A stretch of 64,000 nt of DNA from an uncultured Gammaproteobacteria bacterium (GCA_963803275.1 CAWDLS010000002.1:99905-163904), one strand, 5' to 3'; shown: positions 3,508 to 58,507, counted from the first letter of the stretch. Translations and numbers: made by a program. The notes: generated from the letters alone by a model not told the origin.

Positions 3508-3765
3508 TCAGTGTTCCATGTTATATTGCTTGAGCTTCTTGCGCAGCGTGCCGCGACTGATCCCGAGCATTTCCGCGGCCTGGCTCTGGTTGCCATCCAC
3601 ATAGTTCATGACGACATTGAGCAGAGCCGGTTCCACCTCGTTGAGCACCACGTGATACAGGTCATTTACCTTGTGACCGTGCAGGTCACCCAGGTACAGC
3701 TCGATGGCCGAGGTCACGCTGCGGCGAATCGGCTGCTTGCGGCGTTCGCGCCGGTGCTGCACATT
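3508..3765 (-). CDS. fis: DNA-binding protein Fis
   Basis: 86-aa product [12 protein letters not shown]...[28 protein letters not shown] with the Fis C-terminal HTH; start overlaps dusB stop. Confidence 0.9.
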
Positions 3766-4751: not shown

Positions 4752-4866
4752 CGGTGATACGACGTTTGATATGTCTGTTCTAATCCCGGAATTAAGGACG
4801 GGAGATAATACCCGCTTGCGTGAAGATGTAAAAGCGTTATAAAAAAATGTTTGAAAAATGCAGGCT
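4752..4866 (-). promoter_or_regulatory. probable dusB-fis promoter / leader region
   Basis: 115-bp AT-rich spacer upstream of dusB, downstream of the preceding convergent-free gene; inferred from position only. Confidence 0.3.
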
Positions 4867-5652: not shown

Positions 5653-5758
5653 GAGTGTACCTCAATAAACGTCCAGGGTTGAATGAACCGCTGCACCATC
5701 TCGCCCGTGATTAACGGCCATGGAATACAGGAGCACACGGAATAATGATTGAATAGAA

Positions 5759-6012
5759 ATGGCCACGGACACACACGGAAGCACACAGAAAAACACGGAA
5801 AAATGTTTTCAGGCTGCCATTGCGGGCTGGACCGCAGGCATGGCCGCTACGGGGCCGTCGGCAACTACGCCTGCTGTGCCAGGGGATCCTGCCGTTGCTG
5901 ACCGGATAGCGGCGGATGAAACCGGCAGCATTCAGTCATTATTGACAGATCGCAATTATCAAGTCTTTCTCTCCGTGTCCTTCCGTGTGCTTCCGTGTCC
6001 TTCCGTGGCCAT
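5759..6012. mobile_element. second MITE-like copy with imperfect inverted ends built from ATGGCCACGGA / TTCCGTG units
   Basis: Left end ATGGCCACGGACACACACGGAAGCACAC... and right end ...TCCGTGTGCTTCCGTGTCCTTCCGTGGCCAT are imperfect reverse complements; no ORF; between Zn-ribbon gene start and prmA stop. Confidence 0.5.
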
Positions 6013-13980: not shown

Positions 13981-14763
13981 TCAGCCCAGTCTCTTGTGAC
14001 GGGAGACAGCCAGCAGACCGAGCAGGCCCGAGCCAAACAGCCAGGCCGCAGCAGGGACCGGAACAACAGAGTCGACATGGATGGAGGTGATATCGAAATC
14101 GAAATTGAAACCAGGAAACGGACCGTTGTCCATCGGGACACCCCCGACGCCGTCGTCGCCGGTGAGACAGCTCGCGGTCATGACGCAAACCGGATCGTTA
14201 TGGTAGTTGGTGTCCAATGTCGTGGTGGCTATCGGGGCGGTGCCGATCGGATACTTACCATTGATCATGCCATTACTGGCCGGGGTCGCACCCACGCCGG
14301 AGATGGTGGTGCTGGCGGCAAACGGGCCAGCACCGAAGAAGCCGGCGGCGTCAAGGACGATACCCGTGTTGATATTGTTGTTGCCATTCCAGTCCCACAG
14401 CATCTTGCCCATGACCAGCGTACCGGCACCGCCGGCACCGTCACCAACGGCCAGTATCGAAAAGTCGTGTACACCCAGGGGACCACTGGTTTCGAAATCG
14501 AAGGGATTCATAACCACGCTGCCAGCGCCTGTGCCCGTATCGTACGTGAAGGTACCGGATATCTGGGTACGCAGACCATAACCCCAGGTCGGATCCCCGT
14601 AGTAAGGATAGCTGACGTTATCCAACGGCGTGCCCGAGGCGTTTAGCCAAGTGAACAGGCCGGTCCAGGATGCGTTGATTATGGCGGCGTCGGCCGTGGC
14701 AGCGGTACCTATGCCCAACGAGATGCTCAGCGCCGCAGCGATAGCGGTTTTATTATTCTTCAT
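13981..14763 (-). CDS. PEP-CTERM sorting-domain surface protein (paralog A)
   Basis: Signal peptide MKNNKTAIAAALSISLGIGTAATADA; Gly/Thr/Asn-rich body; C-terminal VPVPAAAWLFGSGLLGLLAVSRHKRLG = PEP-CTERM motif (VPxP + TM helix + basic tail); GGAGGA RBS before ATG 14763. Confidence 0.75.
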   Translation of the reverse strand: MKNNKTAIAAALSISLGIGTAATADAAIINASWTGLFTWLNASGTPLDNVSYPYYGDPTWGYGLRTQISGTFTYDTGTGAGSVVMNPFDFETSGPLGVHDFSILAVGDGAGGAGTLVMGKMLWDWNGNNNINTGIVLDAAGFFGAGPFAASTTISGVGATPASNGMINGKYPIGTAPIATTTLDTNYHNDPVCVMTASCLTGDDGVGGVPMDNGPFPGFNFDFDITSIHVDSVVPVPAAAWLFGSGLLGLLAVSRHKRLG

Positions 14764-14958
14764 GTCCGCTCCTCCCCTGGTATTTATGTGGATTCTCCTT
14801 GCGGTGAATATTTGCCTGTCTGATAAACGACTCTTTTCAGCAGGCCTTGGTAAGCAAGCGTAGTGTGAAAACTGGTAGCTGGCAACCGCACCGGGAGGTG
14901 AAGCGGCGCGGAGCCAGCCTGCCCGACAGGGCAACTCTCCGGTTTCCAGGCCGGCCGT

Positions 14959-19028: not shown

Positions 19029-20450
19029 CTATATTCCCGGGTCCTTCACCAGGACATAGACCTGCCCGGCGATGCTGTCACCATATTCCTCCCTCAGAAC
19101 GATGTCCTGTACCGCAAGCACACGAAGGTCCGATGCCAGGGCCAGCGTGGTGATATAGCCCGGGCTTTGTGCATAGCGACCGGACGGGCACAGGGTATAG
19201 GGCCGGTCATCGTTCGCTCTTTCTGTTGAAAAGCACAGCAGCCCGTGATCGCGCAGTGCGCGGGCACAGGCCGGAAATATCGCCGTCAGGTTGCCGAGAT
19301 AGACGAACACGTCGCCAGCGAGGATCAGGTCATACGCAGTGTCCTGACCGGCAAGAAAGGACGCAATATCATTCTGCGCCAGATGGTCATAGATACCCAG
19401 CGCCCTGGCCTTGTCCAGCATTCGTTCCGAAAGATCAACCCCGGTAATCGAGTTCGCGATATCGGTGAAGTTCTGCGCGCACAGACCGGTGCCGCAGCCC
19501 AGGTCCAGAATATCGAGCGAGGGCGGGTTTTTGCCCAGCGCACTGTGTACCAACCGGTTCATCACCACCGGCGCCGAATACCCAAGCGCACCAACCAGGT
19601 GCTCGTCGAAATTATCCGCATAGCCGTCGAACAGCTCCTGGACGTAGCTGACCGGCGACCGGGGCGGCGCCTCGCGCACGCCGATTACTGACAGAAAATA
19701 GGCAGCATTGGCATGTTTTGGGTCAATCGAGAGGATGTGACGGAAACACTGCTCCGCCTCCGCGATCGCATTGCGCTTGTGCAGGAGAAAGCCAAGGTAA
19801 TAGAGCGCGCTGATGTGCCCGGGCGCACCCGCGAGCGCTTGTTTCAGGCAGGCCTCCGCTTCGGCCGGGCGGTTGTCGAACAATCGCGACATGCCCAGGT
19901 TGGCAAGCGCATCGGGATAATCCGGACGCAGGCGCACGGCCTTCTCGAAACACTCCGTGGCTTCCGCAACCTGGCCCATCTGCCGCAGGGCCGTACCCAG
20001 GTTGTTGAGCGCCTCCGGGTGTTCAGGCGCTATAGCCAGCGCAGTGCGCAGCACGCCCTCGGCTGCGGCAAAGTTTCCAGCGTCGATCAGTGCGCAACCC
20101 AGGTTCACCTCAGCGCCGGTGTAGCCTGGCCTGAGCCGGAGCGCCTCGCGAAACTGGACCTCCGCCTCCGCACGCTTGCCGAGCGTCCGCAACACGCAGC
20201 CAAGATTATTGCGCAGCGTGGCATCGACCGGGCGCAACGCGACCGCACGCTCCAGCGCCGACTCCGCCGCAGGATGGTCTCCGGTCATGCCGCAGACTAT
20301 ACCGAGCAGCCCGGCCACCTCGGCATCGCCGCACTCGCCGACCATTTCGAGAACCCGGCGCGCTTCCGCGAGACGATGCGTCTGAATGAGTTGCTGTGCT
20401 CGCTGCTTCGCGATTGTCCTGGTATCGGAAGTGTCCACTGCCTGAAACAT
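19029..20450 (-). CDS. TPR-repeat + class I SAM-dependent methyltransferase (paralog of 11710-13221)
   Basis: TPR N-domain; C-terminal ILDLGCGTGLCAQNF...ITGVDLS...AGDVFVYLG; start taken at MFQAVDTSD (ATG 20450) since the upstream part of the track ORF lacks homology. Confidence 0.7.
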   Translation of the reverse strand: MFQAVDTSDTRTIAKQRAQQLIQTHRLAEARRVLEMVGECGDAEVAGLLGIVCGMTGDHPAAESALERAVALRPVDATLRNNLGCVLRTLGKRAEAEVQFREALRLRPGYTGAEVNLGCALIDAGNFAAAEGVLRTALAIAPEHPEALNNLGTALRQMGQVAEATECFEKAVRLRPDYPDALANLGMSRLFDNRPAEAEACLKQALAGAPGHISALYYLGFLLHKRNAIAEAEQCFRHILSIDPKHANAAYFLSVIGVREAPPRSPVSYVQELFDGYADNFDEHLVGALGYSAPVVMNRLVHSALGKNPPSLDILDLGCGTGLCAQNFTDIANSITGVDLSERMLDKARALGIYDHLAQNDIASFLAGQDTAYDLILAGDVFVYLGNLTAIFPACARALRDHGLLCFSTERANDDRPYTLCPSGRYAQSPGYITTLALASDLRVLAVQDIVLREEYGDSIAGQVYVLVKDPGI

Positions 20451-20470
20451 CTCGTTGTTGTATGGTTGAT

Positions 20471-21268
20471 TCAGAGAGTATAACGGAACAACGACTGCAG
20501 TTCTGGCGGCAGCGCCATCAGCGCCTCGGGGCTGATGATCAGCGGCTTCTGGTGATAAAAGTTGGTTGAATCGCGCCACCACGGGCGGCAATAAATGAGA
20601 TAGAGAATCGGGCGTATGGCCCGGGTGTAGTTCGCGGTTCCGCCGTGCAGCAGACGTGCGTCGAAGAGATAGCACCCGCCAGGTTCCGGGAGAATGGAGA
20701 CCGAATCCATCAGATCAGGTTGTGTGTTTTTCCAGTCGATCGTACGGCGGTGGGTTCCCGGCCAGAACCGGGTCACACCGGTCATGGCGTCGAGCGGGAC
20801 TAGCGGTATGGCCAGCGTGATCGCGTACGGCGGCAGCGACTGCGACAAGCACTCGTCTTCGTCGAAGAGGAACGGAAAGTCGACGTGTACGTGCTGATCA
20901 GCGGAATCTGGCCGTGACGTGACCGCGACATAGGCGTCGAGAATGCAGTTGCCGCCCAGCAGACGCCACAACACGGGCATCACCGCGGCGGGGGCAAACA
21001 GGGCCGGGTTACTGAAGGGCGGTTTGACTTCGATCGCAATCATGGTGCGCTTGTCGCCCACTTCCCTGCTTGCATCTATCGTGTTGCCATACTCCTGTCT
21101 GTAGGCGCAGTTCACCTCATCAAGATAGTCTGGTGAGAATACATTATTGATAATCACCGCGCCGTGGGTCAGGAACGATTCACTGCAGGCATCGACGACG
21201 GCAGCAGACTCATCACCGCAATCCGGGGCGTGGAAAGTCATGGTTTGCATCAAGGTCTCAGTCGTCAT
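20471..21268 (-). CDS. phytanoyl-CoA dioxygenase (PhyH)-like 2OG oxygenase
   Basis: MTTETLMQTMTFHAP...QHVHVDFPF...HGG; HxD...H arrangement; start ambiguous (21268, 21249 or 21241); the first 85 codons of the track ORF overlap the upstream TPR gene and are probably not translated. Confidence 0.5.
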   Translation of the reverse strand: MTTETLMQTMTFHAPDCGDESAAVVDACSESFLTHGAVIINNVFSPDYLDEVNCAYRQEYGNTIDASREVGDKRTMIAIEVKPPFSNPALFAPAAVMPVLWRLLGGNCILDAYVAVTSRPDSADQHVHVDFPFLFDEDECLSQSLPPYAITLAIPLVPLDAMTGVTRFWPGTHRRTIDWKNTQPDLMDSVSILPEPGGCYLFDARLLHGGTANYTRAIRPILYLIYCRPWWRDSTNFYHQKPLIISPEALMALPPELQSLFRYTL

Positions 21269-21884
21269 TGGTGCGTCGCTGTGCCAGCTCGATCTGTTTG
21301 AGTACCTGCTGTGCCTGTTCATTGCCTGGCTCCAGCTGGAGCGCTCTCGATACGGCGTCCCGCGCCTCCGCAAGCTTGCACCTGGCCAACTGTATCTGGG
21401 CCAGCAAGGTGTGCGCCGAGACCATTTCCGGCGCCCGTTCGATGGCGGCGAAAACGCAGTGCAGCGCATCGTCCAGTCGGGACCTGGACGCATACAGGTT
21501 GCCGAGAAAAAGGTGCACCACTGCATCGCCGGGATTCAGGGCAACGAGTCTTCTCGCCTGTTCGATGGCGGCATCCAGATCCTTTTTCAGGACGTAGACG
21601 TTGGCCAGATGGGAGATGATCTCGATACTGCCCGGGCTGATGTCAGCGGCCCGCAACAGACATCGCAGTGCATGGTCTAATTTGCCGGCGCGTACGTATC
21701 CGATCCCCAACTGGTGCCACGCCATTGAATTCACGGGATCTTCGTCGCACACAATATGCAGCAATGACAGGGACGCTGCCAGCTGGCCGGTATCGCGCAA
21801 CGAGACGGCCTTTGCGACCGCGGTGGTTTCGGTGTAGTGTGCAATGGTCATGGAGGGAGGTTCGGTTCGATAGATTGTCAGCAA
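21258..21884 (-). CDS. stand-alone TPR-repeat protein
   Basis: 208-aa ORF with 4-5 TPR repeats (AWHQLGIGYVRAGKLDHA..., VHLFLGNLYASRSRLDDA...); no enzymatic domain; alternative start 21851. Confidence 0.55.
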   Translation of the reverse strand: MLTIYRTEPPSMTIAHYTETTAVAKAVSLRDTGQLAASLSLLHIVCDEDPVNSMAWHQLGIGYVRAGKLDHALRCLLRAADISPGSIEIISHLANVYVLKKDLDAAIEQARRLVALNPGDAVVHLFLGNLYASRSRLDDALHCVFAAIERAPEMVSAHTLLAQIQLARCKLAEARDAVSRALQLEPGNEQAQQVLKQIELAQRRTNDD

Positions 21885-22481
21885 AAATTACAACTAGACG
21901 CCGTTCGTACGGCTGGCATTCACACAACTTGTTGACTTTACAGGAATTATATTGTATTCCCCGGTTGTTGTTATACAGCGTGGTCTACCGTTTTTAATGA
22001 TACGAACCAGCGTTATAGCTCACCCCGTCGCTCAATGATCACGCACTGGATGATGCCAGCTTAGCTACTCTGTATCAGAGAGACTTGTCAGATTGACTGT
22101 ATCAACTCAGAAGCTGTTTTGGAACCATCGAGCGGTTATCGCGGCGACAAGGGAACCAGCCTCGCACCGTCAAGTGTCCGTGTCCTGATGGAGGACTTGG
22201 CCATCACTGCGGTGTCACGGCCCGACCGTCTCCGGGTTCCCGACAACGGCCGGGACTGCACCTGCACCGTCAACCCGAACAATCCGCCTGTCTGGCTCGC
22301 CAGGGACGAACGCTTCAGGATCATGCTCAAGCAGATTTGCATGGCGGATGCACCTGGGATCACTTCCACCCGTTTACGAACTCAATGGTGCCGTCGTAAT
22401 CAGGTCCGGCGCAGATCAATCCACGGTCGTAGCAGAAAATAACCGTTAGACACTAATGCAGCGTCAGCGTGGGATGCAGAC

Positions 22482-23165
22482 ATGTTGAACAAAAATATTG
22501 ACCTGGCGGCCTGCCAGAAAACGTTCCGGGAAACGGGGTTTGTCCGAATCGAGAATGTCCTCGAACCTGCCTACGCCGATAACATAGAAGCCGCCCTGAA
22601 GACCGGCATCAGCTGGGACCTTTGTTACCTGAACGAATCGGGCCCGGTTTCGATACCGCAGGCAGAATACCGGGCCTACACACTGGCACAGTCGGCCGAG
22701 CTAAACAGCGCAATTCTGAAGCAGGCGCAGAACGGGTTCGCGTATTTTTACTATCGTTCGGACCTGGTCCGAAGCAAGCACGAGGTACTCAGTACCTTTT
22801 ACCGCGAGCTGTCCGCTGATCATTGCCTCGGAGTATTCCGGCAGATCACCGGCGAAACGGGGATCAGGGCCGTCAATGGACAGGTTGCCTGTTTTACACC
22901 GGCCTGTTTTCTGAAGCGGCACCAGGACACGACCGACAAGGAAAAGCGGTTCGCCGCCTATGTATTCAACTTTACCCGCGGGTGGGACCCGGACTGGGGC
23001 GGGCATCTGCACGTTCTCGACAAGGAACTCAGGAACGTCAATGTCTTCGAGCCGAGTTTCAATACCTTAGTCATCTTCAAGGTGCCCAGGATTCACTTCG
23101 TGTCCCAGGTCAGCAACTATGCACGTGGAGCTCGCTTTACAGCGACAGGTTGGCTGCTGGGCTGA
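22482..23165 (+). CDS. 2OG-Fe(II) oxygenase family protein (paralog A)
   Basis: HxD (FLKRHQDTTD) ... GWDPDWGGHLH ... second His; 227 aa; paralogous to 24247-24945. Confidence 0.55.
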   Translation: MLNKNIDLAACQKTFRETGFVRIENVLEPAYADNIEAALKTGISWDLCYLNESGPVSIPQAEYRAYTLAQSAELNSAILKQAQNGFAYFYYRSDLVRSKHEVLSTFYRELSADHCLGVFRQITGETGIRAVNGQVACFTPACFLKRHQDTTDKEKRFAAYVFNFTRGWDPDWGGHLHVLDKELRNVNVFEPSFNTLVIFKVPRIHFVSQVSNYARGARFTATGWLLG

Positions 23166-23167
23166 TA

Positions 23168-24246
23168 TCAGCCACGGTCGGACATGCCAGTCTCACCATC
23201 AAACCGCACCGGTGCATCCCATCCCTCGAAGCTTTCCATCCAGTCCAGACCAACCTGAATCTCAGCCTCGTGGTGCTCTGACAGGACCAGCATTTCATAC
23301 TGCCGCTCGGCCGATGAATAGCTCCTGGTCGTGTCCTTGGAGTGTTTCTGCCAGAGGCCGGAATCGATGACTGCATCGATGTCCGCCTCATTCAGGCCAA
23401 GAGCCAGAACCCGGTTGCTGTCCAGCAGGACGCGGCGGGTATCGGATAGCAGTTGCGCCGAGCTATGCACATGCATTGATCTGATCGCTCCCTCAGTACC
23501 TTCCTGTAGCTATGGATCTGTGTCATCCATACCTAAGCCGCCGACTCGGCATCGGGCAAGCCGGATACATCCACCGCATGGAGTACCGAATGTGTGTCCA
23601 CCGCGTTCTCCCGTCGCGAACGTCCGAGGAAGTTTTTTAGAAACTGCCGTCGTCCTGCGGTTTTCAGGTTGGATGCAATAAACTCCCTGGCCTGCGAATA
23701 AAGCAGAATGGCCCTGCTGTCTTCATGCAATGCGAGAATGTCGGTGATTATATTGTTGCATGAATCAGTGGGTTTGATGACGGTGGTTTCTGCTCCGCTC
23801 CACGCCTTGGATAACATCGACAGGGAAAAGCGTAACAGTTCCGGCCATCGACCGGTCACAAATTGCGGGTACTCCGCGGATCTTCGCCTGGCGACGGCAG
23901 GCTGATGCAAGTGAACCGGTTCGCGATAGACCATCGTACGGCCGGCGATATCGAAGGCCCGGCTCAGCAGCGTTGAGCAGCAATATGCCGTATGAAAGAT
24001 CAGCCGGCCTGGAGGCAGACTCGATGAAAGGTCGATGGCCATGGCCTGGTCGATGGCTAACCCGTACTGATTGAGGGTCGGGCTGACAAGCCGGTCATCG
24101 AGAAAACTGCTTTCCCGAAATGATTCCCGCGTCATTTCCCGGAAGATGGCAATCCTGGAGTGAAAGTCGTACTTGTGGAAGTACAAATCGGGATTTCTGA
24201 TACGCGCGATCAGGTTCTGCATATGAGCGACTACGTCTTTGCACAC
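23168..24246 (-). pseudogene. uncharacterized-family protein (paralog of 25126-26181) interrupted between about 23476 and 23535
   Basis: ORF 23533-24246 (..IFHTAYCCSTLLSRAFDIAG..IKPTDSCNNI..) aligns with the N-terminal 230 aa of the 351-aa paralog, and ORF 23168-23476 (..DAVIDSGLWQKHSKDT..) aligns with its C-terminus (..DAQLGQVLSGPVFQQHSKSG..); one gene split by frameshift/stop, possibly a sequencing indel. Confidence 0.5.
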
Positions 24247-24945
24247 TTATACCGTCAGCCACCCGGTAATGCTGTACCGCGGCCGTGGTGCGAACGGCAT
24301 CACGTAGGATACGAGATGACGCACCGGCACGGCAAAGATCAGCAGTGAGTTGTAGAGCGGTACGTAGGTATCCGTTACGCTGCCGTCGCGTTCCAGAAAA
24401 TGCGTCAATCCTCCCCAGTCGGGGTGCCAGCCCTTGCTGAGGTTGAACACGAAGGCCGCCCGCCGCTCTGCCTTCTGTGTATCATCGTGCATCATCAGGA
24501 AATCGCCGCCCGAATAGCGCGCCGCCAGAATCTCGATACTGCATACCTCGGGCATGCCTGTTACCGAACGTGCAAAGTCGAAAAACCGGTCCGATTTGAG
24601 GAAATCCCTGAATGTGTTGACGTAGGCATCCACGCGGCACAGTTCCTTGTTCCGGTCGGAAACCGAGTAATGGCCGTAGCAGAACTGGAATCCGAGTGAA
24701 CCGAGCGCGGTGATCTTTTTCTGGATTGTCTCCCACTGGGCATTGGTCATATTGGCCCGTTGCTCCCGGGAAAACACGCAGGCAGAGCCTTTTTCCATAT
24801 ACGCCATCTGCCACGGGATATCCAGATCAAGCGACCGGAGGACGTTTTCAGCGACCTCTTCGTTCAGTGCATTCCTGATCAGGATGCGGTTCTTGCGCAC
24901 GAATTCCGTGTGCAACTGATCCGGGTCCAACTGGCTGTTCAACAT
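24247..24945 (-). CDS. 2OG-Fe(II) oxygenase family protein (paralog B)
   Basis: LMMHDDTQ (HxD) ... GWHPDWGGLTHF; 232 aa; about 35-40% identical by eye to 22482-23165. Confidence 0.55.
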   Translation of the reverse strand: MLNSQLDPDQLHTEFVRKNRILIRNALNEEVAENVLRSLDLDIPWQMAYMEKGSACVFSREQRANMTNAQWETIQKKITALGSLGFQFCYGHYSVSDRNKELCRVDAYVNTFRDFLKSDRFFDFARSVTGMPEVCSIEILAARYSGGDFLMMHDDTQKAERRAAFVFNLSKGWHPDWGGLTHFLERDGSVTDTYVPLYNSLLIFAVPVRHLVSYVMPFAPRPRYSITGWLTV

Positions 24946-25125
24946 ACTGGTTCACCCTGGCATGGCGGTTATTCCGCAAATGGTAGCGCACGCTGGCCGA
25001 ATTTACGGACAAAGGCACGACACTGGAATTATAATGAATTTCACGGCCCGCTGCCCGGGTGAGTGTCGGCACATCAAACCATCACCACATTGTGAGAGGC
25101 ACGGCAAAGGGAAAACGAGAAACGC

Positions 25126-26181
25126 ATGATGTCGCTACCGCAACTGCTTGCCACCCCGGAGTGGTTCCCGGATGCCATCTACGCTGACCGTGGATTGCTC
25201 GATTGCTACCGTGTCAACAGGCACCTGTTGTCCGACAGCCCTTTCCTGGATCAGCGTATGACGACCCGATCCGCGGGCAAGGTGCAGGCAGCCTTTTCCT
25301 ACGACGACCTGGCGAAACTGGCGGATGGCGTACGAACAGACCGCATCGGCTTTGTATTCCATACCTCGTTCTGTCGCTCGACCCTGATGGCGCAGGCATT
25401 GCACATCGACGGGTTCAGTTTTTCGCTGAAGGAACCCTCATTCCTGCTTTCCCTTGCCGAATCGATTCGTTACACGCAGGCCTTGCGCGAACCGGACAGG
25501 GTTCGCGTGGCACTTTCGGCCATGCTAAGGCTCGCAACCGGCCTGGTGGAACCAGACGAGAAGACGATCATCAAACCGACCAACTTCGCAAACAACCTTC
25601 TGCCCTATGTCGCGGAGACCGGTGCAAAGATACTGCTGATGTATTCCGGGCTACGCAGCTACCTGATATCGATTCTGAAGTACGGCGAACGGGGGCGCGC
25701 GTTTGCGCGGCAACTCTACACACGGCTGATGGCAGATTGTACAGAGCTCGGGAACATGGAACCCAGGCAGGCGCTGTTACAGACGGATCTCCAGATCGCG
25801 GCGCTGGTCTGGCAGCAGCAGACGGACCTGTTTAAAAAGGTCATCGGCAACGCATTGCATGGTCAGATACGTACCCTCGACAGCGACGTATTTGGCGCCC
25901 ACCCGGGTGCGGTACTTGCCGAGTTGTTCAGGTTCTTCGACATACCGGTCTCGGACGCACAGCTCGGGCAAGTCCTGTCGGGCCCGGTATTTCAGCAGCA
26001 TTCCAAGAGCGGAAAACCGGTTGATGAGCAGGCGATCCTGCGTCAGACCCGGGAGATCGCGGAGCAATACCACGAGGAACTCGAGACCACCATGCGATGG
26101 GCACAGTCCACCACTTTCAGCAGTCAATTCACGGTACCATTGCCGAATAACCTGACCGTACCAGGTGCCGCTGGAATGTAA
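25126..26181 (+). CDS. uncharacterized-family protein (partner of the oxygenases; weak resemblance to a sulfotransferase PAPS loop)
   Basis: 351 aa; FVFHTSFCRSTLMAQAL and IIKPTNFANNLLPYV segments shared with 23168-24246; no confident domain call. Confidence 0.5.
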   Translation: MMSLPQLLATPEWFPDAIYADRGLLDCYRVNRHLLSDSPFLDQRMTTRSAGKVQAAFSYDDLAKLADGVRTDRIGFVFHTSFCRSTLMAQALHIDGFSFSLKEPSFLLSLAESIRYTQALREPDRVRVALSAMLRLATGLVEPDEKTIIKPTNFANNLLPYVAETGAKILLMYSGLRSYLISILKYGERGRAFARQLYTRLMADCTELGNMEPRQALLQTDLQIAALVWQQQTDLFKKVIGNALHGQIRTLDSDVFGAHPGAVLAELFRFFDIPVSDAQLGQVLSGPVFQQHSKSGKPVDEQAILRQTREIAEQYHEELETTMRWAQSTTFSSQFTVPLPNNLTVPGAAGM

Positions 26182-26186
26182 TTCGC

Positions 26187-27689
26187 GTGGCGGGACCGGA
26201 CGAAATCGACTGCACCGAACCGGACGCCAGGCTCCGCGCCCGATCACTGCTTGCCGCAGGCAACGCCGAGGCCGCCTATGAGCTGCTCCGGACGGCGTGC
26301 CGGTCATATAACTGCGATGCCGAAACCTGGTTTCTGTTCGCGGGTGTGAGCGCGGAGCTCAATCGGTTCGATGAAGTTGTCGAGGGCTGCCGGCGCACCG
26401 TGGAGCTGGAGCCGCACCATGCGCGGGCCTGGTACAATCTCGGGCTGGCCTGTTTCCACCTTGGCCGGCTGAAGGATGCCGTATTCGCCTACCAGTCGGC
26501 GCTCGCCATCGAACCGGACTCACCAGCCATTCTCGGCAACCTCGGCGCGACCTGGCTGGAATCGGGTGATCCGGTACGTGCCCTCGAATGCTGCGCCAGG
26601 GCGGTGGAACTCGATCCGCGATCGGTGACAGCCTTCAATTCCCTGGGCATTGCCTACCGTGAACTGGGCCGCTACGATGATGCCCTGGACGCATTCGAAC
26701 GGGGTGCGCGGGTCGACCCGGAAAACACGGATGTACACTGGAACCGCGCGCTGGCACTGCTCAAGATCGGGGATTTCCAACGGGGCTGGGACGAGTTCGA
26801 ATGGCGCTGGCGTTATGAGAAGGCGATGCTGCGGACAACGCCGTATCCTGCATGGAGGCGCAAGCGGCCGGTTAATCCACTGCTTGTTTACATGGAGCAG
26901 GGCATCGGCGACCAGATCATGTTCGCCTCCTGCCTGCCGAGTCTGCTGGCCACGGGCAGTCGCGTGATCGTCGAGTGTGAGCCAAGACTGGTGCCGTTGT
27001 TCGAGCGTTCCTTTCCCGGTGCCCGGTTTCATGGCGGTTCCTGGGATGAGCGGCGCGCAGAGTGCCAGATACCGATCCAGTGCCAGATTCCGATGGGCAG
27101 TCTGCCACGGCTGTTCCGGCGCGACCGGGGGGCGTTCCCCGCGCACGCGGGCTATCTTTCGGCAGATGAGAGGCTGATCTCGCACTGGCGTGCCACGCTT
27201 GCCGCCCTGGGTGACGGCCTGAGGGTCGGGATTTCCTGGCGTGGCGGCAAGGACGAGCGCACCCGGGCCAGGCGGACGATTCCGCTGCCCGCCTGGCGTG
27301 AGGTGGCCAGCATCGGCAACGTGGTGTTCATCGACATTCAGTATGGCGACCGGCGCGAGGAGATCCAGGCGGCGCACAGGGCCGGCATGGATCTCCACTC
27401 GATCGCCGGTGTGGATGCCATGACCGACCTCGATACATTCGCCGCCCTGCTCAAGGCACTCGACCTCGTGGTGACCGTGGACAACAGCACCCTGCACCTG
27501 GCAGGCGCGCTCGGTGTCGAGACCTGGGGTCTGCTGCCGTATGATTCGGACTGGCGTTGGGAGACGGGCAAGAACCGTACGCTCTGGTATCCGGGTGTAC
27601 GGTTATTTCACCAGACAGGTCGCGGAGACTGGACGGATGTGATCGGGTCCCTCAGCGCCGAACTTGCCGTCAGGGCGGCGGAACTTTGA
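26187..27689 (+). CDS. TPR-repeat + glycosyltransferase family 9 (heptosyltransferase-fold) protein
   Basis: N-terminal TPRs then LLVYMEQGIGDQIMFASCLPSL ... ISWRGG ... VVTVDNSTLHLAGALGVETWGLLP typical of GT9 enzymes; GTG start. Confidence 0.6.
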   Translation: MAGPDEIDCTEPDARLRARSLLAAGNAEAAYELLRTACRSYNCDAETWFLFAGVSAELNRFDEVVEGCRRTVELEPHHARAWYNLGLACFHLGRLKDAVFAYQSALAIEPDSPAILGNLGATWLESGDPVRALECCARAVELDPRSVTAFNSLGIAYRELGRYDDALDAFERGARVDPENTDVHWNRALALLKIGDFQRGWDEFEWRWRYEKAMLRTTPYPAWRRKRPVNPLLVYMEQGIGDQIMFASCLPSLLATGSRVIVECEPRLVPLFERSFPGARFHGGSWDERRAECQIPIQCQIPMGSLPRLFRRDRGAFPAHAGYLSADERLISHWRATLAALGDGLRVGISWRGGKDERTRARRTIPLPAWREVASIGNVVFIDIQYGDRREEIQAAHRAGMDLHSIAGVDAMTDLDTFAALLKALDLVVTVDNSTLHLAGALGVETWGLLPYDSDWRWETGKNRTLWYPGVRLFHQTGRGDWTDVIGSLSAELAVRAAEL

Positions 27690-27705
27690 GGCTGACAACC
27701 AGGAC

Positions 27706-28530
27706 ATGACCTGCTTCTTCATTGGCGGAGCCCCCCGCTCCGGCGGCACCCTGCTCACGAGTATCCTCTGCTCCGACCGCACGACCAACCCGATGTTGCG
27801 TGAGGCACATTACCTGCGCGAGATGGTGCAGGCTTACCGGCAAGGCAAGCAGTTCTTCAATACCCTGGAGGGGGGCCACTTCTTCAGCGACTCCGAAGAC
27901 CTGCGACAGTTCTCCGCGACCTGGGTCCAGGCCTTCCTCGATAAACTCGGCGCCCGGTACGCATCCGCCTCCCATCTGGTGCTGAAGAGCTTTCTGATGA
28001 GCGTGATGTTTCCCGCCGTGTTCGAACTGCTGCCGGAGGCCAGGTTTCTGATCTCGGTGCGGGACCCGCGTGACATCGCCTGTTCGCAGATCGACGTCGG
28101 AGAACGGCAACGCCGGCAGGGGCTGAACGTCCGTTTCCCGCGCGATGTCACCCGGCTGTCGCGCGAGAACCGCCACTACTATCTGCCGTCCATGACCTTC
28201 CGTCACCCCGGTTTCCAGAGTCAGGTGCTGTTCGTGCGCTACGAGGATCTGGTTCAGCAGCCAGACACCGAGGTAGGACGGATCCGGGCATTTACCGGTC
28301 TGGCGCTGGAAGAATACAATCCGGACGGGTCCTGGTCCGGCGGCGGGCGCGATTTCAACGGTGACCGCGAATCCGGCGACCCTTACATCAACGACCTCTT
28401 TGGCAAGGGTGTCACATCCAGGCGTGTGGGCCGCTACCGGGAAATGCTTACGCCCGGAGAGATCCAGGCGGTCGAGACAGAGTGTGCGCCATTGTTTGCT
28501 ACATTTGGGTATGAGCCAGGTCCTGAATGA
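27706..28530 (+). CDS. sulfotransferase-domain protein (no TPR)
   Basis: MTCFFIGGAPRSGGTLLTSIL (PAPS 5'-phosphate loop) and ISVRDPRDIACS (3'-phosphate motif). Confidence 0.6.
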   Translation: MTCFFIGGAPRSGGTLLTSILCSDRTTNPMLREAHYLREMVQAYRQGKQFFNTLEGGHFFSDSEDLRQFSATWVQAFLDKLGARYASASHLVLKSFLMSVMFPAVFELLPEARFLISVRDPRDIACSQIDVGERQRRQGLNVRFPRDVTRLSRENRHYYLPSMTFRHPGFQSQVLFVRYEDLVQQPDTEVGRIRAFTGLALEEYNPDGSWSGGGRDFNGDRESGDPYINDLFGKGVTSRRVGRYREMLTPGEIQAVETECAPLFATFGYEPGPE

Positions 28531-28878
28531 CAGGGTAGTCTGATACAGCGATGCAGATCGCATTCTCCAGTATCTGCGGTGCGTGCATCGGATTCAGGGT
28601 GAAGCCCGCTTAACAGTTTATCTACGCAATCTGTTGCACGCCCGAATGTTTCAGTACATACAAGGTTTACGTAACGAGAGCATTTTCCGCCGGGATGTAC
28701 ACCATGCAATTCCAACGGGAAGACTGTTTTCGATTGGAGTCCGGCCGTATGTCGGATTCTTCAGGTTTTCCTCATCTTTCTTTAGATATAGGATATCGAG
28801 CATGCAGGCCGTTGGAAGGTTACCGGCAAACGGGTAACAAAGCTGTATCACCAATAGTTCGAGAAGGGATTGAGCACC

Positions 28879-29931
28879 ATGCTGTCATCTTGGTCCATTG
28901 ACGAAATGTTTGCGGAATTCCGTGCGCTCGGTGGCACGGCCGACAATGTAGAGCAGCGAGAAGGCCCCTTTGGTTCGGGTCTGTTTCCGGTCGACCCGGC
29001 GCAGCCAGTCGCTGTCCACATACCTGCTGCCATGCTTGTCCCCAGCCGGCATGTGATTCAGGAAGGAATAGACCTGGTCGTGTCACCGGCATCTCACCTC
29101 GATCCACAGGTGAAGGATTTCTTCACCCGCTACCAGCGTGCGTTTTCCTGGGGGGGCGAGGCGCGCACGAGTATTGAGACTTTTCACGGGCAGTTTGCCG
29201 AACTGCCTGACGATATTGTGCGAGCGCTCGCGAAGATCGGCATCGAGATCAATCAACCGCTCAGCAAGGAATGGTTACCCTTTGAGCTATTCAAGATGAG
29301 CAGAACCTTTACATATCACGATGAGCCGGTTTTCATGCCTGTTATCGATCTGATCAATCATGGACGCGATGCACAGGGCTTCGATACCAGGGATGGAATC
29401 CGTGTTGCGGGTTCATTCCCGGGCGAGGTCCTCGTTCACTATGGACCTGCAGACAGCATTGGCCGCTTCTTCAGCCAACAGTTCGTCAGCGACGAATTGT
29501 CGGCGTTCTCTCTGACAATCACGATTCCCGTCGCAGCCGGCGGGAAAACCCTTTACGTTGGTCGCCGGATCTTTGAGAAGCAGACGGCGAGCGCCATGCC
29601 GCTGCTTCCGGTAGTTCGGGAGGACGGTGACCGCGTCACGCTCTCTCACCTGATGCTGGGGAACGAACGTATGCCGCGCCTTCCAAGGACCCTTTTCCGG
29701 CAGGTTCTGCCATCCCTTGCGACTGAACAGGCCGACGAGCTGTTCCAGAGAATCGTAAACACCAATATACTGTTGCTCATCGGCCTGCTTGATGCGCTTG
29801 ACGCACGCGAAGACGAGATAGCGCGACAACTCCGGAGGGTAGCCCGGCTCCAGCTCAAGGATATAGCCCAGTCTTATGGGGCACTGGACTCAGACGCAAT
29901 CATTATGAAACGCAAGGTTATTCAGCAATAG
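28879..29931 (+). CDS. hypothetical protein with SET-domain-like motifs (possible protein-lysine methyltransferase)
   Basis: ATG 28879 preceded by GAGAAGGGA RBS; VIDLINHGRDAQGFD and GEVLVHYGP resemble the SET NH-x-C/PN and GEEL-x-x-YG motifs; low confidence. Confidence 0.4.
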   Translation: MLSSWSIDEMFAEFRALGGTADNVEQREGPFGSGLFPVDPAQPVAVHIPAAMLVPSRHVIQEGIDLVVSPASHLDPQVKDFFTRYQRAFSWGGEARTSIETFHGQFAELPDDIVRALAKIGIEINQPLSKEWLPFELFKMSRTFTYHDEPVFMPVIDLINHGRDAQGFDTRDGIRVAGSFPGEVLVHYGPADSIGRFFSQQFVSDELSAFSLTITIPVAAGGKTLYVGRRIFEKQTASAMPLLPVVREDGDRVTLSHLMLGNERMPRLPRTLFRQVLPSLATEQADELFQRIVNTNILLLIGLLDALDAREDEIARQLRRVARLQLKDIAQSYGALDSDAIIMKRKVIQQ

Positions 29932-37737: not shown

Positions 37738-38523
37738 TCAGCTCATTTTCTTGCGACGGGCAACACCCACCAGACCGAGCAGGCCGGAGCCGAACAGCCA
37801 GACTGCGGCCGGGATCGGGACAGCAGGTGCGGTTACGTTTGTGACATGGATGGAGGTAATGTCGAAATTGGCACTGAAGCCCGGGAATGGACCGTTGTCC
37901 ATCGGATCACCACCAATACCATCGTCACCGATGATGAAAGCGCCACCGTTATGGAAATCAGTGTCAAACGATGTCGTAGCCATCGGGGCTGGACCGATCG
38001 GGAACTTGCCCTTGTTGATGCCATTACTGGCCGGGGTCGCACCCACACCGGAAATGGTGTCGCTGGTACTGACCGCACCAGCACCGAAGAAACCGGCGGC
38101 GTCGAGAATGATACCCACGTTAATGTTGGTGCTCGTGGCCCAGTCGAACAGCATCTTGCCTGCCACCAGCGTGCCGCTACCACCCATCCCGTCGCCGATA
38201 GCCTGCATCACAATGTCGTGGGCGCTCGCCTTACCCTTGTTGAAGAACTCAAACGGGTTCACGACTGCGGAACCAGCACCCGTGCTGGTATTGAAGCTGA
38301 AGGTACCGCTGATCTGAGTGCGCAGACCGTAACCCCAGGTGGCATCGCCATAGTACGGATAGCTGGTGTTCTGCAGTTGAACACCGGCCGGATCCAGAAT
38401 GGTGAACAGGCCGGACCAGGACGCATCAATGACTGCTGCACTGGCGCTGGTCGGCATTGTAGCCACACTGATCCCCAGAGAAACGGCAACAGCAGATGCT
38501 AGAGCAGTTTTCTTCAAGTTCAT
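37738..38523 (-). CDS. PEP-CTERM sorting-domain surface protein (paralog B)
   Basis: Signal peptide MNLKKTALASAVAVSLGISVATMPTSASA; body about 60% identical to 13981-14763; C-terminal VPIPAAVWLFGSGLLGLVGVARRKKMS; GGAG RBS 7 nt before ATG 38523. Confidence 0.75.
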   Translation of the reverse strand: MNLKKTALASAVAVSLGISVATMPTSASAAVIDASWSGLFTILDPAGVQLQNTSYPYYGDATWGYGLRTQISGTFSFNTSTGAGSAVVNPFEFFNKGKASAHDIVMQAIGDGMGGSGTLVAGKMLFDWATSTNINVGIILDAAGFFGAGAVSTSDTISGVGATPASNGINKGKFPIGPAPMATTSFDTDFHNGGAFIIGDDGIGGDPMDNGPFPGFSANFDITSIHVTNVTAPAVPIPAAVWLFGSGLLGLVGVARRKKMS

Positions 38524-38670
38524 GATTGACTCCAAATAATTTGTTAAATATCGATATTAACATTCAATTTTATTGTTAACCGTTAGTTGTTGTCAGTACC
38601 TAAATAGCTCCGCGAGCACTGACAGTGAACCGAACCGGCATGACAATAGCTGCACAGGCACCATTATTGT

Positions 38671-40631: not shown

Positions 40632-40734
40632 CCACAAGGAGATGGGCCGGTTAATGATTTTTTGTCTGCATATCTAAATTCTTGAGGGAAAGGGCATGTC
40701 ACATTTAACAATAAATCTGACTCGCACGATCAAA

Positions 40735-41316
40735 ATGACGGCTATGGCCAGCGCCATGGCCATAGCCTTGGGCGGCAGCAGCCTGCTGTGCACAAGCACA
40801 CCGGCAGCGGACCTGATTTTCAGCTTTACCGGCAGCACCAGTGGCGGTCTGTTTACCATGCTGGATCCGGCGGGGTGCCGCTGGGCAACACCAGCTACCC
40901 GTACTACGGCGATCGACCTAGGGCTACGGCTGGCGTACCCAGCTTACCGGCACCATCACCATCGACCCGGCAACCAAAAGCGGCTCGATAGCGATCGCCC
41001 CATTCGAGTTCTCAATGGCGGTCCAGCGGTTGCGCATGATATCACGTTAACCGATGCCAGCAGCGATCCGCTCGACACCGGCGGAGCTACCATGTTGTTG
41101 GGCAATATGAGATTCGACTGGAGTGGCAGCAACGACATCCCGGTGACGCTGGTCTGGGACGCCACCTGGCCTGATGACCGCTATAAATAGCGGCCTGGCG
41201 GTCAGTGACGTAGTTTCGCGGTGGCGCAGCATGTGCCACCTGCGCGACCCCGGCATCAAACGGGATCACCAAGGGCAAGTTGCCGATAGGTCCGGTCCCG
41301 ATGGCCACCACTTCTT
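40735..41316 (+). pseudogene. N-terminal domain of a PEP-CTERM-family surface-protein gene, disrupted by at least 4 frameshifts and one stop
   Basis: Frame 1 gives signal peptide MTAMASAMAIALGGSSLLCTSTPAADLIFSFTGSTSGGLFTMLDPAG; frame 3 GVPLGNTSYPYYGD; another frame GYGWRTQLTGTITIDPATKSGSIAIAPFEF; frame 1 GGPAVAHDITLTDASSDPLDTGGATMLLGNMRFDWSGSNDIPVTLVWDA; then ITKGKLPIGPVPMATTSFDT. All are collinear with paralogs A/B. Confidence 0.45.
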
Positions 41317-43362
41317 TTGATACCTCTGACACTGGCGCACCGAATTATACGGCCACATTACCACTGGTTAACGATACGGCTTGCAATTGGCGGCTCGCCC
41401 ATGCAGGCCGGTCCGTTTCCCGGTTTTAATGCCAATTTCGATTTCTCATCGCTGACCCTCATCAGCGATGGCAGTGGCCCGACCTTTACACAGCCGGCGG
41501 ACGTCAACTTCACCGCGCCGGAACAGGCAACACCCGCGGCCATCAGCGTCGGTCTCGGTACGGTCACCGACGAGGCGCCGCCCGGCACCACGGTCGAATA
41601 CAGTATCGACGGCAAGGCGATCAACGACCCGACCAAGACCTGGATTGCCGACAACAACGGCAGCAACACCATCTCGGTCAACGCCACCCAGACCGTGACG
41701 ACCCTGGCGGTCGACTGGCGTGCAACCGATACCCTGAGCGGCCAGTCGTTTCAGACCCAGAACGTGACGGTCACCATCACGGATACCACGGCACCCAGCA
41801 TCACCGGCACGCCGGCAGACGTGAGCACCAGCGTCACCAGCACGGCAGACAGTGTCTGCTTCGGCGCACTGACCGCCACGGATGCCGTTGACCCGACACC
41901 GGCCATCCAATGGTCCCATGACGGGTTCACCTTCAACACGGCGAATCCGACAGACAACTGCTCGACCGGTTTCGGCCCCAATGCCAACACGGTAACCTGG
42001 CGGGTGACGGACGACACGGGCAACACTGCGACCTACCTGCAGACCGTTACGCTGAACCTGCCAGCCGGCATTACCGGCAAGGCCTGCACCGTTGATCTCG
42101 CCACAGCCGGTGCGCGCCTGCTGGAAGGCGACTTCACCATGCGCACGTCATCCGGTTCCATTACCGGGAACATCGACCACGGAGTCACCGGTAATATCGA
42201 CACAACCGTGTTCTGTACCGACCCGGACATCGTGAACTGCAACCCGACCCCGCCCGCGGTCACACTGATCTCAGGACAGCCCTTCTTCGGATTCGACTGG
42301 TCGGCCGCGCCAGTGCGACTGTTCGATCAGGGTACCTGGACATTCGAGACCTGTCCGTTCCCGCGGGTGGCGGTCAATGCCGGAACACCAAGCGCTGACT
42401 GGATATCGGATCCGGCCAATGGAGGCGATGGCTCGACCAAGTGCGGAAGCCAGTTCGCGCCCAACCCGATTACCATGACCGTCGGGGCGGGTCAGCTGGG
42501 CGCACACATGCTGTTTAACTGGGCGAGCAACGTTGCCATCGACGTGGTCGTGGTATGGGATGTGGGCTGCAACAAGTTCGAACTCACCTCCACCGACCCC
42601 GACGGCGACGGCATCCTGTCCACCCCGATGGTCGATGGACCCTTCAAGGGTTTCAATGCCGCGTTTGACGTCAAGACCCAGCCCGGCGAACCACCGATCG
42701 CGGATGGCGGCTACACGGTTACCGTCGCGACAGCCCAGAACCCGGTAGCCGGCGAATCACCGCTCCCGCTGACGACACAGGCATTGCCGGCCTTCACGGC
42801 AGACTCGGCTGCGGTACGATCCTGCGTAGGCGGCTGCTACAAATTCACCACCACGGATCTGCTCGACGGCAATGACGTCGCTGGCGCCTACAAATACGCC
42901 CAGGTCACACTGCCGCTGAGCGAGGTCACCCCGTTCTGGTCGCTGTACCGCAAGTACGACGAGGCCACCATGACCTGGGGGCCGTTTACGATCAACAACC
43001 GCAACAATGTCCTGACCGCGCCGCTGGATCAGGGCACCGGCGAGTGTCCGGAACCGGGCAACGGCACCTATGACCGCCCCTCCTCCGGTGCGCTGACGGA
43101 CAAGCTGCGAGAAAACGATCTGTGTGTCCAGCTCACGATCGAGGACAACGGTCCGAACGACGCCAATCCGGCGGCGGGCACGGTGGATGATCCGGGCGGG
43201 GTGGCTGAAGTCCCGGCTGGCGTGCTGCCGAAGCCGGAAAGTAGCGGCGGCTGTACCGTTGCCGGCTCGACAGTCGATCCTGCAAAGGGCGGGGCGTGGT
43301 GGCTGGTGGCCGGCTTCCTGACCTGGATGGGCTGGAAACGCCGTAACCGTCACTCACTCTAG
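41317..43362 (+). CDS. large Thr/Asp/Gly-rich surface protein, C-terminal 681 aa of the PEP-CTERM-family gene, with divergent C-terminal sorting tail
   Basis: Begins in-frame with MQAGPFPGFNANFDFSSLTLI (homologous to MDNGPFPGFNFDFDITSIHV of paralogs); repeated TxTD/PTP-rich modules; second MVDGPFKGFNAAFDV motif; ends ...PKPESSGGCTVAGSTVDPAKGGAWWLVAGFLTWMGWKRRNRHSL (Gly-rich + TM + basic, not a canonical VPEP). Confidence 0.5.
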   Translation: MIPLTLAHRIIRPHYHWLTIRLAIGGSPMQAGPFPGFNANFDFSSLTLISDGSGPTFTQPADVNFTAPEQATPAAISVGLGTVTDEAPPGTTVEYSIDGKAINDPTKTWIADNNGSNTISVNATQTVTTLAVDWRATDTLSGQSFQTQNVTVTITDTTAPSITGTPADVSTSVTSTADSVCFGALTATDAVDPTPAIQWSHDGFTFNTANPTDNCSTGFGPNANTVTWRVTDDTGNTATYLQTVTLNLPAGITGKACTVDLATAGARLLEGDFTMRTSSGSITGNIDHGVTGNIDTTVFCTDPDIVNCNPTPPAVTLISGQPFFGFDWSAAPVRLFDQGTWTFETCPFPRVAVNAGTPSADWISDPANGGDGSTKCGSQFAPNPITMTVGAGQLGAHMLFNWASNVAIDVVVVWDVGCNKFELTSTDPDGDGILSTPMVDGPFKGFNAAFDVKTQPGEPPIADGGYTVTVATAQNPVAGESPLPLTTQALPAFTADSAAVRSCVGGCYKFTTTDLLDGNDVAGAYKYAQVTLPLSEVTPFWSLYRKYDEATMTWGPFTINNRNNVLTAPLDQGTGECPEPGNGTYDRPSSGALTDKLRENDLCVQLTIEDNGPNDANPAAGTVDDPGGVAEVPAGVLPKPESSGGCTVAGSTVDPAKGGAWWLVAGFLTWMGWKRRNRHSL

Positions 43363-51866: not shown

Positions 51867-52592
<726 letters not shown>

Positions 52593-58426: not shown

Positions 58427-58507
58427 TCACGGTCCCTTCGTCTGTCGTGGCAGTATCCTAGCAGAAAAGTGCGAAAAAATGCGGAATAACATTGCAAAAA
58501 CATTGTG

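Follow-up and report, generated by a model that had tools for sequence, protein, structure and literature searches.

A 64,000-nucleotide stretch of DNA from an uncultured Gammaproteobacteria bacterium (GCA_963803275.1 CAWDLS010000002.1:99905-163904; hereafter the window) carries, at positions 22482-26181, two ancient paralogous two-gene modules, each pairing a Tpa1/OGFOD1-like Fe(II)/2-oxoglutarate (2OG) oxygenase with a partner protein of the sulfotransferase fold. The resulting four-gene block comprises an oxygenase gene, Oxy1 (22482-23165, plus strand; 227 amino acids), the convergent partner P1 (23168-24246, minus strand), a second oxygenase gene, Oxy2 (24247-24945, minus strand; 232 amino acids), located upstream of P1 and read in the same direction, and a second partner, P2 (25126-26181, plus strand; 351 amino acids), which is divergent from Oxy2. 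Oxy1, Oxy2 and P2 are intact open reading frames (ORFs) exactly where an earlier note on this DNA had placed them, and P1 is a pseudogene. The balance of the evidence makes it about an even question whether the two modules carry out a hydroxylation followed by capping, probably sulfation, of the new hydroxyl group.

The earlier note had described the partner as a protein with no clear domain and a faint likeness to sulfotransferases. The first part of this description was wrong and the second has been borne out, with the Gly and Arg of the P-loop replaced: structural modelling predicts that the entire partner is one sulfotransferase-fold domain, extended by beta structure at its N terminus. 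The AlphaFold2 (AF2) model of P2 (predicted local distance difference test score (pLDDT) 95.3; predicted template modelling score 0.93) retrieved sulfotransferases alone among its top 50 Foldseek matches in the PDB. TPST2 and the CurM sulfotransferase domain stand first among these, and the types represented in the 50 (TPST1/2, the CurM sulfotransferase domain, 3-OST and cytosolic SULTs) match with probability 1.0 and E-values down to 8e-5. A profile built from 47 partner sequences matched the CurM sulfotransferase domain (7e-4), OLS and the mycobacterial structure 2zq5 (deposited as 'Putative uncharacterized protein'), while 19 of the 47 members match Pfam Sulfotransfer_3 at E-values up to 0.1 (best 4.2e-07). 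In addition, hhalign aligned the partner with canonical sulfotransferase domains from the window and related loci at 87% probability (E = 4e-6), with the motifs in register.

The family to which the partner belongs is large and unnamed. P1 and P2 themselves match no Pfam or NCBIfam model, and a homolog search with the partner returned 64 unnamed clusters, a few of which carry weak precomputed sulfotransferase matches. With clusters drawn at 50% identity, an exhaustive profile search recovered no fewer than 1,383 of them at E <= 1e-30, a number that rises to 2,275 when the limit is relaxed to E <= 1e-10. Almost all are single-domain proteins of 330-360 amino acids, and relatives are present in 381 species genomes. 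Two members with additional domains were found. P0273 (839 amino acids) combines a partner domain, tetratricopeptide repeats (TPR) and a canonical sulfotransferase domain in one protein, and P0090 (580 amino acids), from a Phycisphaerales metagenome-assembled genome (MAG), joins DUF6065 to a partner domain through a Pro-rich linker. DUF6065 was considered as a possible oxygenase relative and rejected (hhalign probability 0.25%; no PDB relative).

The active site of the partner retains the catalytic features of sulfotransferases and departs from them where the donor 3'-phosphoadenosine 5'-phosphosulfate (PAPS) is contacted. In the hhalign register, the partner donor loop F-H-T-S-F-C-R-S-T-L (family motif H-T-[AS]-[FY]-C-[CRG]-S-T-L) stands against the canonical I-G-G-A-P-R-S-G-G-T-L, with Arg replaced by Phe, Ser by Cys, and Gly by Cys or Arg. 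Likewise, the 3'-phosphate motif reads L-L-M-Y-S-G-L-R-S-Y-L-I-S against the canonical L-I-S-V-R-D-P-R-D-I-A-C-S, the first Arg being replaced by Ser. Residues were counted over 208 non-redundant family members and are given in P2 numbering. Position F82, which corresponds to the Arg/Lys of the 5'-phosphosulfate loop, holds Phe in 161, Tyr in 28, His in 13 and Leu in 6 members, and S174, which corresponds to the 3'-phosphate Arg, holds Ser, Gly, Ala, Thr, Val or Asn; neither position is Arg or Lys in any of the 208. At the loop Gly position, Cys is found in 145 members, Gly in 30 and Arg in 28. The family as a whole therefore lacks the Arg/Lys and Gly combination of the canonical P-[RK]-S-G-[ST]-T loop, and the Arg of the 3'-phosphate motif R-x7-S is missing throughout.

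Several other positions are fixed across the same set. The P-loop Ser-Thr (S85, T86), the catalytic Glu aligned with the 'GE' base together with the Pro that follows it (E103, P104), and a Lys aligned with that of 'DKxPxN' in the canonical sulfotransferases of the window (K150) are each present in 208/208, so that both the catalytic base and the conserved Lys are retained; the Ser of the 3'-phosphate motif (S182) is kept in 170. Three further residues are specific to the family, namely K294 (207/208), H79 (206/208) and C83 (201/208). This is the residue pattern of an enzyme under strong constraint. To our knowledge, the donor site is unlike that of any characterised PAPS-dependent sulfotransferase in its details.

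Oxy1 and Oxy2 are single-domain, prolyl-hydroxylase-like Fe(II)/2OG oxygenases, and are not orthologs of Tpa1/OGFOD1. Both match Pfam 2OG-FeII_Oxy_4 (PF13661; 63.3 bits for Oxy1 and 68 bits for Oxy2, cut-off 27) as well as 2OG-FeII_Oxy_3 (PF13640), the latter also far above cut-off, and Oxy2 matches the Ofd1 C-terminal domain model Ofd1_CTDD weakly (37 bits). A 40-sequence oxygenase profile searched against the PDB matched OGFOD1 (2.5e-18), Tpa1 (6e-12), the Pseudomonas putida prolyl 4-hydroxylase (P4H; 5.7e-7) and PHD2. The AF2 model of Oxy2 (pLDDT 94.6) gave Tpa1 (4nhk) as its first Foldseek match (E 1.6e-10; template modelling (TM) score 0.68; root-mean-square deviation (rmsd) 3.4), followed by 4nhx, 4j25 and PHD2; the Tpa1/OGFOD1 matches range from 0.66 to 0.68 in TM and from 3.4 to 3.8 A in rmsd, and the model is next closest to the bacterial P4H (PPHD) and then to the hypoxia-inducible factor (HIF) prolyl hydroxylases. 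The HxD...H triad (H153, D155, H210 in Oxy2 numbering) and the Arg that binds the 2OG C5-carboxylate (R223) are invariant in sets of 12 and 40 sequences, both of which include Oxy1 and Oxy2. Some source databases label the relatives 'Rps23 Pro-64 3,4-dihydroxylase Tpa1-like proline 4-hydroxylase'. The tailoring-island context described below argues that the substrate of Oxy1 and Oxy2 is probably something other than the proline of ribosomal protein uS12.

The two oxygenases and the two partners are each paralogous, as the earlier note had recognized from their shared motifs (FxxxHxD, GWxPDWGG, FHTxxCxSTL and IKPTxxxNN), every one of which was found. Oxy1 and Oxy2 are 31% identical over 232 amino acids, that is, full length (BLASTP E = 2e-36), and P1 and P2 are 26% identical over 225 amino acids plus a second segment (tblastn E = 1e-16). 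The same note's term 'duplicated' is misleading as to the history of the pairs. With an identity of just 26-31% between copies, and with separate orthologs of every copy present in other genomes, the pairs are ancient modules, and a recent tandem duplication is ruled out. Copy 2 of both families is closest to the single-copy pairs found elsewhere, and for this reason Oxy2 with P2 is taken as the core pair and Oxy1 with P1 as the divergent one. In keeping with this assignment, partner-linked oxygenases at other loci score higher against Oxy2 than against Oxy1, except for the second copies of loci L053 and L069, which score about equally. The divergent intergenic region between Oxy2 and P2 (24946-25125; 180 bp) holds one sigma-70-like match (25006-25035) that is no better than chance; across 21800-26400, promoter and terminator counts did not exceed the shuffled expectation and are uninformative on operon structure.

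P1 had been annotated as a gene at 23168-24246, an interval of 1,079 nucleotides (nt) that is not a multiple of three and does not form a single ORF. Its minus-strand frame, read from 24246, ends at an in-frame nonsense codon, TAG, at 23533-23535, and homology resumes in a different frame, in the ORF 23168-23476. Both pieces align with P2 in tblastn, and it is tblastn alignments that identify the nonsense codon, which replaces a Tyr of the orthologs (AAYVW; Leu in P2) and is also present in loci L169 and L170. The second lesion is a 1-nt deletion at about 23462-23463 that leaves a remnant of codon 254 and causes a frameshift, visible between ...DQCMCI and SAQLLS in comparison with P0065 and P0066. 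The N-terminal fragment is the ORF 23533-24246, probably initiated at ATG 24222, and the C-terminal fragment is 23168-23476; gene callers accordingly split P1 into a 229-amino-acid product (P0067, start ATG 24222) and a 102-amino-acid product. Intact P1 orthologs of 321-357 amino acids occur in three relatives (P0065, 74%; P0068, 54%; P0071, 58%). Both lesions recur in two other assemblies, an ENA contig (8 single-nucleotide polymorphisms (SNPs) over 6,690 bp relative to the window) and a Logan contig (1 SNP), both without gaps against the window, and P1 is called there as the same pair of products of 229 and 102 amino acids. Because two other assemblies share both lesions, one of them with 8 SNPs, a sequencing or assembly artefact is ruled out and P1 is a real, recent pseudogene in this lineage.

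The linkage of oxygenase and partner was followed in the best 80 of 381 partner genome loci and the best 80 of 417 metagenome oxygenase loci. Adjacency was counted only where a locus was flanked on both sides by 1.5 kb or more, with linkage defined as the other gene lying within 500 bp; the metagenome scan used a narrow oxygenase alignment (A4), which biases its 80 loci toward Oxy2-like genes. The exact P2 sequence (P0001) has no contig on record, and its context was taken from P0067 and orthologs. The four-gene block of the window is kept in three relatives, L083 (Logan SRR10448390), L084 (GCA_041395565.1) and L085 (JGI 3300013121), with the genes in the same order: P2 comes first, Oxy2 and P1 follow on the other strand, and Oxy1 is last and convergent with P1. 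Intact P1 orthologs share contigs with P2 orthologs. L085 has a third, divergent pair at 4069-5865 adjoining the block, made up of a partner of 358 amino acids (minus strand) and an oxygenase of 228 amino acids (plus strand). This third pair directly follows a FadL-like porin gene and a gene for a surface Ig-like protein of 1,137 amino acids. An Ectothiorhodospiraceae MAG (L002) contains Oxy2 and P2 only.

Pairs of the same kind recur at greater distance. A P2-like gene is convergent with an Oxy2-like gene, 0-98 bp apart, in nine loci forming a clade of gammaproteobacterial and other loci (L021, L023, L024, L026, L029, L032, L038, L039 and L058), and in Arenicella there are two loci that each contain a pair of partner genes and a pair of oxygenase genes. 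Partner:oxygenase copy numbers of 1:1, 2:2 and 3:3 are observed. In the metagenome loci centred on the oxygenase, a partner lies within 100 bp in 13/80, in divergent, convergent and co-directional arrangement. By the 500-bp definition, a Tpa1-like oxygenase is linked to the partner in 11/64 partner loci, and a partner to the oxygenase in 6/30 oxygenase loci; where an oxygenase occurs within 8 kb on either side of a partner, the distance is below 100 bp in 11 of 12 loci. Adjacency is therefore conserved across distant genomes and orientations, and the linkage is limited to one clade and is not general. The earlier note's suggestion of a functional unit gains from the block shared by three relatives, the three layouts and the matched copy numbers, while its question whether the two genes are always adjacent is answered in the negative.

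Partners and oxygenases also have settings of their own. Homologs of the P1 type occur beside canonical TPR-sulfotransferases without an oxygenase (L166), alone (L167), or between two 2OG oxygenases (L168, from the cultured Dokdonella immobilis). P2-type and P1-type partner genes are adjacent or less than about 2 kb apart in five loci (L004, L005, L006, L062 and L063), of which four have no Tpa1-like oxygenase within 8 kb and one, L004, has one at 869 bp; the two partner types may thus work together without an oxygenase. Oxygenase homologs without a partner (metagenome loci L093, L109-L112, L118-L121 and others) are often found beside TonB-dependent receptors (18 loci), and also beside TPR-Asp/Asn beta-hydroxylases (14 loci) and a TPR-repeat family without an identified catalytic domain. 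On account of these neighbours, the oxygenase family overall is seen to reside in hydroxylase and TonB-receptor neighbourhoods.

The block lies within an island of about 26 kb (approximately 11.7-37.5 kb of the window) that is rich in sulfation and other tailoring functions. The island encodes six canonical sulfotransferases, four of them TPR-fused, two TPR-methyltransferases, a TPR-GT41 glycosyltransferase, a TPR protein with a GT9-like domain, two PhyH dioxygenases and one 2OG-FeII_Oxy_5 protein. Most of it is bracketed by two paralogous VPLPA/PEP-CTERM-type secreted proteins, each with a signal peptide and a sorting tail, at 13981-14934 (minus strand; TIGR03370 19.4 bits, below cut-off) and 37738-38535 (minus strand; 31.9 bits, above cut-off), and these are candidate substrates. 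Proteins related to these two secreted proteins are encoded at 40696-41190 and 41317-43362, both on the plus strand. The island lies beside an exopolysaccharide export locus; the genes downstream encode a FadL-like porin, Wza and Wzz, an AAA ATPase and a PEP-CTERM-associated outer-membrane protein, as well as CysQ, a 3'(2'),5'-bisphosphate nucleotidase (cysQ; 51867-52592, minus strand; 287.7 bits, cut-off 228.8). Removal of 3'-phosphoadenosine 5'-phosphate by CysQ is consistent with heavy consumption of PAPS in the island. Beyond the exopolysaccharide locus, further downstream, are type II secretion genes (GspN, GspL, GspK and GspJ; 55981-60096, minus strand). Related loci further encode TPR-Asp/Asn beta-hydroxylases, Sel1-repeat 2OG oxygenases and TonB-dependent receptors. 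One of them, L021, encodes a protein of 612 amino acids (3621-5459, minus strand) in which an Asp/Asn beta-hydroxylase domain is fused to a canonical Sulfotransfer_3 domain, which is domain-fusion evidence that hydroxylases and sulfotransferases cooperate in such islands.

The immediate flanks of the block are likewise shared with related loci. Beyond Oxy1 follow a small TPR protein (21258-21884, minus strand), a PhyH dioxygenase (within 20471-21526, minus strand) and a TPR-methyltransferase (19029-20675, minus strand), in the same order in L002, L083, L084 and L085, and a TPR-sulfotransferase comes next in the shared block. The mechanically called PhyH ORF (20471-21526, minus strand; 351 amino acids) shares about 270 nt with the TPR gene upstream of it. 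As PhyH orthologs have 259-267 amino acids, translation probably begins inside this ORF, near 21250. A 107-amino-acid ORF upstream of Oxy1 (22119-22442, plus strand) is probably not a gene; a 107-amino-acid gene is called at this place in L083, with a protein that is barely alignable and DNA that is unconserved. On the other side, P2 is followed co-directionally by the TPR protein with the GT9-like domain (26187-27689, plus strand) and a canonical sulfotransferase (27664-28530, plus strand), both syntenic with P2 in L001 and L002. The end of the former gene (27689) and the mechanically called TTG start of the latter (27664) overlap by 26 nt, which suggests translational coupling within a P2, TPR/GT9-like and sulfotransferase operon; the true start of the sulfotransferase may be internal, the L002 alignment beginning at residue 9. 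Between sulfotransferase and PhyH genes, the ORF 28870-29931 (plus strand; 353 amino acids) has no Pfam or NCBIfam match even at relaxed thresholds. A 'DLINHG' motif noticed by eye had raised the possibility of a SET-domain methyltransferase, which no search supported.

In the likeliest of the mechanisms considered, the Tpa1-like oxygenase would act first, hydroxylating a C-H position, possibly of proline, on a protein or peptide, as do the enzymes closest to it in structure, all of which are hydroxylases of protein prolines. Using its Glu base, Lys and Ser-Thr loop, the partner would then transfer a group onto the new hydroxyl of the same molecule, a role suggested because its own nearest structural relatives include the protein tyrosine sulfotransferases. 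The group would most probably be sulfate from PAPS, bound in a donor site that would have to be non-canonical because both PAPS-contacting arginines are missing family-wide, and the substrate may be an exosortase-type protein. A number of observations weigh against this scheme. PAPS use by the partner is not assured, judging from the alignment, because neither canonical PAPS-contacting position is ever basic. Neither P1 nor P2 matches a Pfam sulfotransferase model at E <= 0.01, and the gathering threshold is not reached, a result that counts here in the case of P2; the Foldseek TM scores of P2 against sulfotransferases are only 0.4-0.5; no PAPS-synthesis genes lie in the window; and the P0273 fusion hints at a partner role beyond ordinary sulfation. 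As to the pairing itself, 53 of the 64 partner loci and 24 of the 30 oxygenase loci have no gene of the other family within 500 bp, a Thiohalobacterales contig (L001) carries P2 without an oxygenase, most alphaproteobacterial partners (Hyphomonadaceae, Maricaulis, Sphingomonadales) stand alone in unrelated contexts, for example in Hyphococcus, and Oxy1 is still intact despite the death of P1.

The missing arginines and the P0273 fusion leave room for a partner that does different chemistry on the sulfotransferase fold, with a non-PAPS donor or catalysis by His79/Cys83, while sharing a pathway with the oxygenase and with canonical sulfotransferases. His79 and Cys83, nearly invariant and specific to the family, stand inside the donor loop, a fusion of partner and canonical TPR-sulfotransferase would be easier to explain with the domains doing different jobs, and partner genes do stand beside canonical sulfotransferases even without an oxygenase (L166). 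We nonetheless hold this to be unlikely: the Glu, the Lys, the P-loop Ser-Thr and the 3'-motif Ser are kept at the positions of PAPS-dependent transfer, the near-invariant R195 and K294 could stand in for the lost arginines, and no neighbouring gene suggests an alternative donor. Doubtful to a similar degree is the view that oxygenase and partner are independent tailoring enzymes, made neighbours by dense packing of the island and sharing neither consecutive steps nor contact. Most members of either family occur unaccompanied by the other, the island contains numerous further oxygenases and sulfotransferases in mixed order, and both the lone P2 of L001 and the survival of Oxy1 after the loss of P1 are readily accommodated; the spacing of less than 100 bp in almost all partner loci where the two co-occur, in several orientations and distant taxa, and the one-for-one copy numbers are not. 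Slightly less credible again is a more far-reaching proposal, that the H-T-A-F-C-C-S-T-L family forms a new class of sulfotransferase-fold enzyme with a His/Cys-based site, capping residues hydroxylated by Tpa1-like oxygenases on exosortase-sorted surface proteins in a non-canonical manner, which could involve a different donor, an intermediate bound covalently to His/Cys or the transfer of something other than sulfate. Least probable of all is a catalytically dead, sulfotransferase-like partner that presents the substrate to the oxygenase, or the reverse. Loss of the donor-binding arginines and loop Gly and the one-for-one duplication of the two genes would agree with it, and the earlier note had offered a passive substrate-presenting subunit as an example; however, E103, K150, S85, T86 and K294 are invariant or nearly so over the 208 sequences in the way typical of an active site, including in members that have no oxygenase nearby, and most partners lack an oxygenase within 8 kb, which implies a function of the family's own.

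Elucidating the chemistry of the partner would either extend the known modes of PAPS binding or show that a familiar fold can support a new reaction, and were the new-class proposal true, it would represent a previously undescribed bacterial system of modification by hydroxylation and capping. The pairing defines a concrete two-enzyme assay, for which cultured sources such as Dokdonella immobilis and Arenicella exist. It also offers a handle on the targets of the TPR-fused sulfotransferase islands that are very common, and unstudied, beside exopolysaccharide/PEP-CTERM loci.

Among characterised enzymes, the partner is most readily compared with the TPST, Sulfotransfer_3 and CurM sulfotransferase type. 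The fold is the same, with a Foldseek probability of 1.0 for TPST1/2, for the CurM sulfotransferase domain and for 3-OST, and the P-loop Ser-Thr, the Glu, the Lys of 'K-P-x-N' and the Ser of the 3' motif all align. The catalytic base is Glu in TPST and Sulfotransfer_3 and His in cytosolic SULTs; the Glu of the partner sits 17 residues past the loop, and is the putative equivalent of Glu99 of TPST2. Against this type, the partner has Phe/Tyr for the 5' loop Arg, Cys for the loop Ser, Cys, Arg or Gly at the loop Gly position and Ser/Gly for the 3'-phosphate Arg, and it alone has an extra beta-rich N-terminal segment of about 70 amino acids and the nearly invariant His79.

The oxygenases belong to the same 2OG oxygenase subfamily as Tpa1, OGFOD1, Ofd1 and bacterial PPHD (P. 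putida P4H), as reflected in PF13661 and the weak Ofd1_CTDD match. With Tpa1/OGFOD1 they share profile matches (4nhx, 3kt1), the fold (TM 0.66-0.68 to 4nhk and 4nhx), the HxD...H triad and the 2OG-binding Arg. However, the eukaryotic proteins are two-domain enzymes of 560-650 amino acids, with a catalytic and a C-terminal double-stranded beta-helix-like domain, whereas Oxy1 and Oxy2 have one domain in 227-232 amino acids. Identity is just about 17-19%, the WxxDWGG motif is proper to Oxy1 and Oxy2, and the setting is a tailoring island for secreted products rather than translation.

At the level of gene neighbourhoods, literature searches on PEP-CTERM with sulfotransferase and on prolyl hydroxylase with sulfotransferase returned a single relevant paper, and no paper was found on the oxygenase-partner pair or the partner family. 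That paper described neighbourhoods of beta-hydroxylases, PhyH-methyltransferases and sulfotransferases, and predicted that co-encoded secreted proteins are hydroxylated and the hydroxyl then sulfated (Iyer, Abhiman, de Souza and Aravind 2010; PMC2938197). The window differs from those neighbourhoods in that its enzymes are mostly TPR fusions and its candidate substrates are VPLPA/PEP-CTERM proteins in place of collagen-like or tail-collar proteins; no collagen-like or tail-collar genes were found in the window, and neither was a PAPS synthetase. The pairing of a Tpa1-like oxygenase with an arginine-less sulfotransferase-fold protein is not described there (PMC2938197). The likeness lies in the clustering of PhyH-type and other 2OG dioxygenases with sulfotransferases and methyltransferases, which the window displays with two PhyH, one 2OG-FeII_Oxy_5 and two Tpa1-like oxygenases, six canonical sulfotransferases and two TPR-methyltransferases. 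Hydroxylation followed by sulfation is accordingly not a new idea, having been predicted in 2010, and the pair is a variant of this known theme; the single feature of interest in it is the partner family, large, unnamed and of the sulfotransferase fold, which has no Arg at either canonical PAPS-contacting position.

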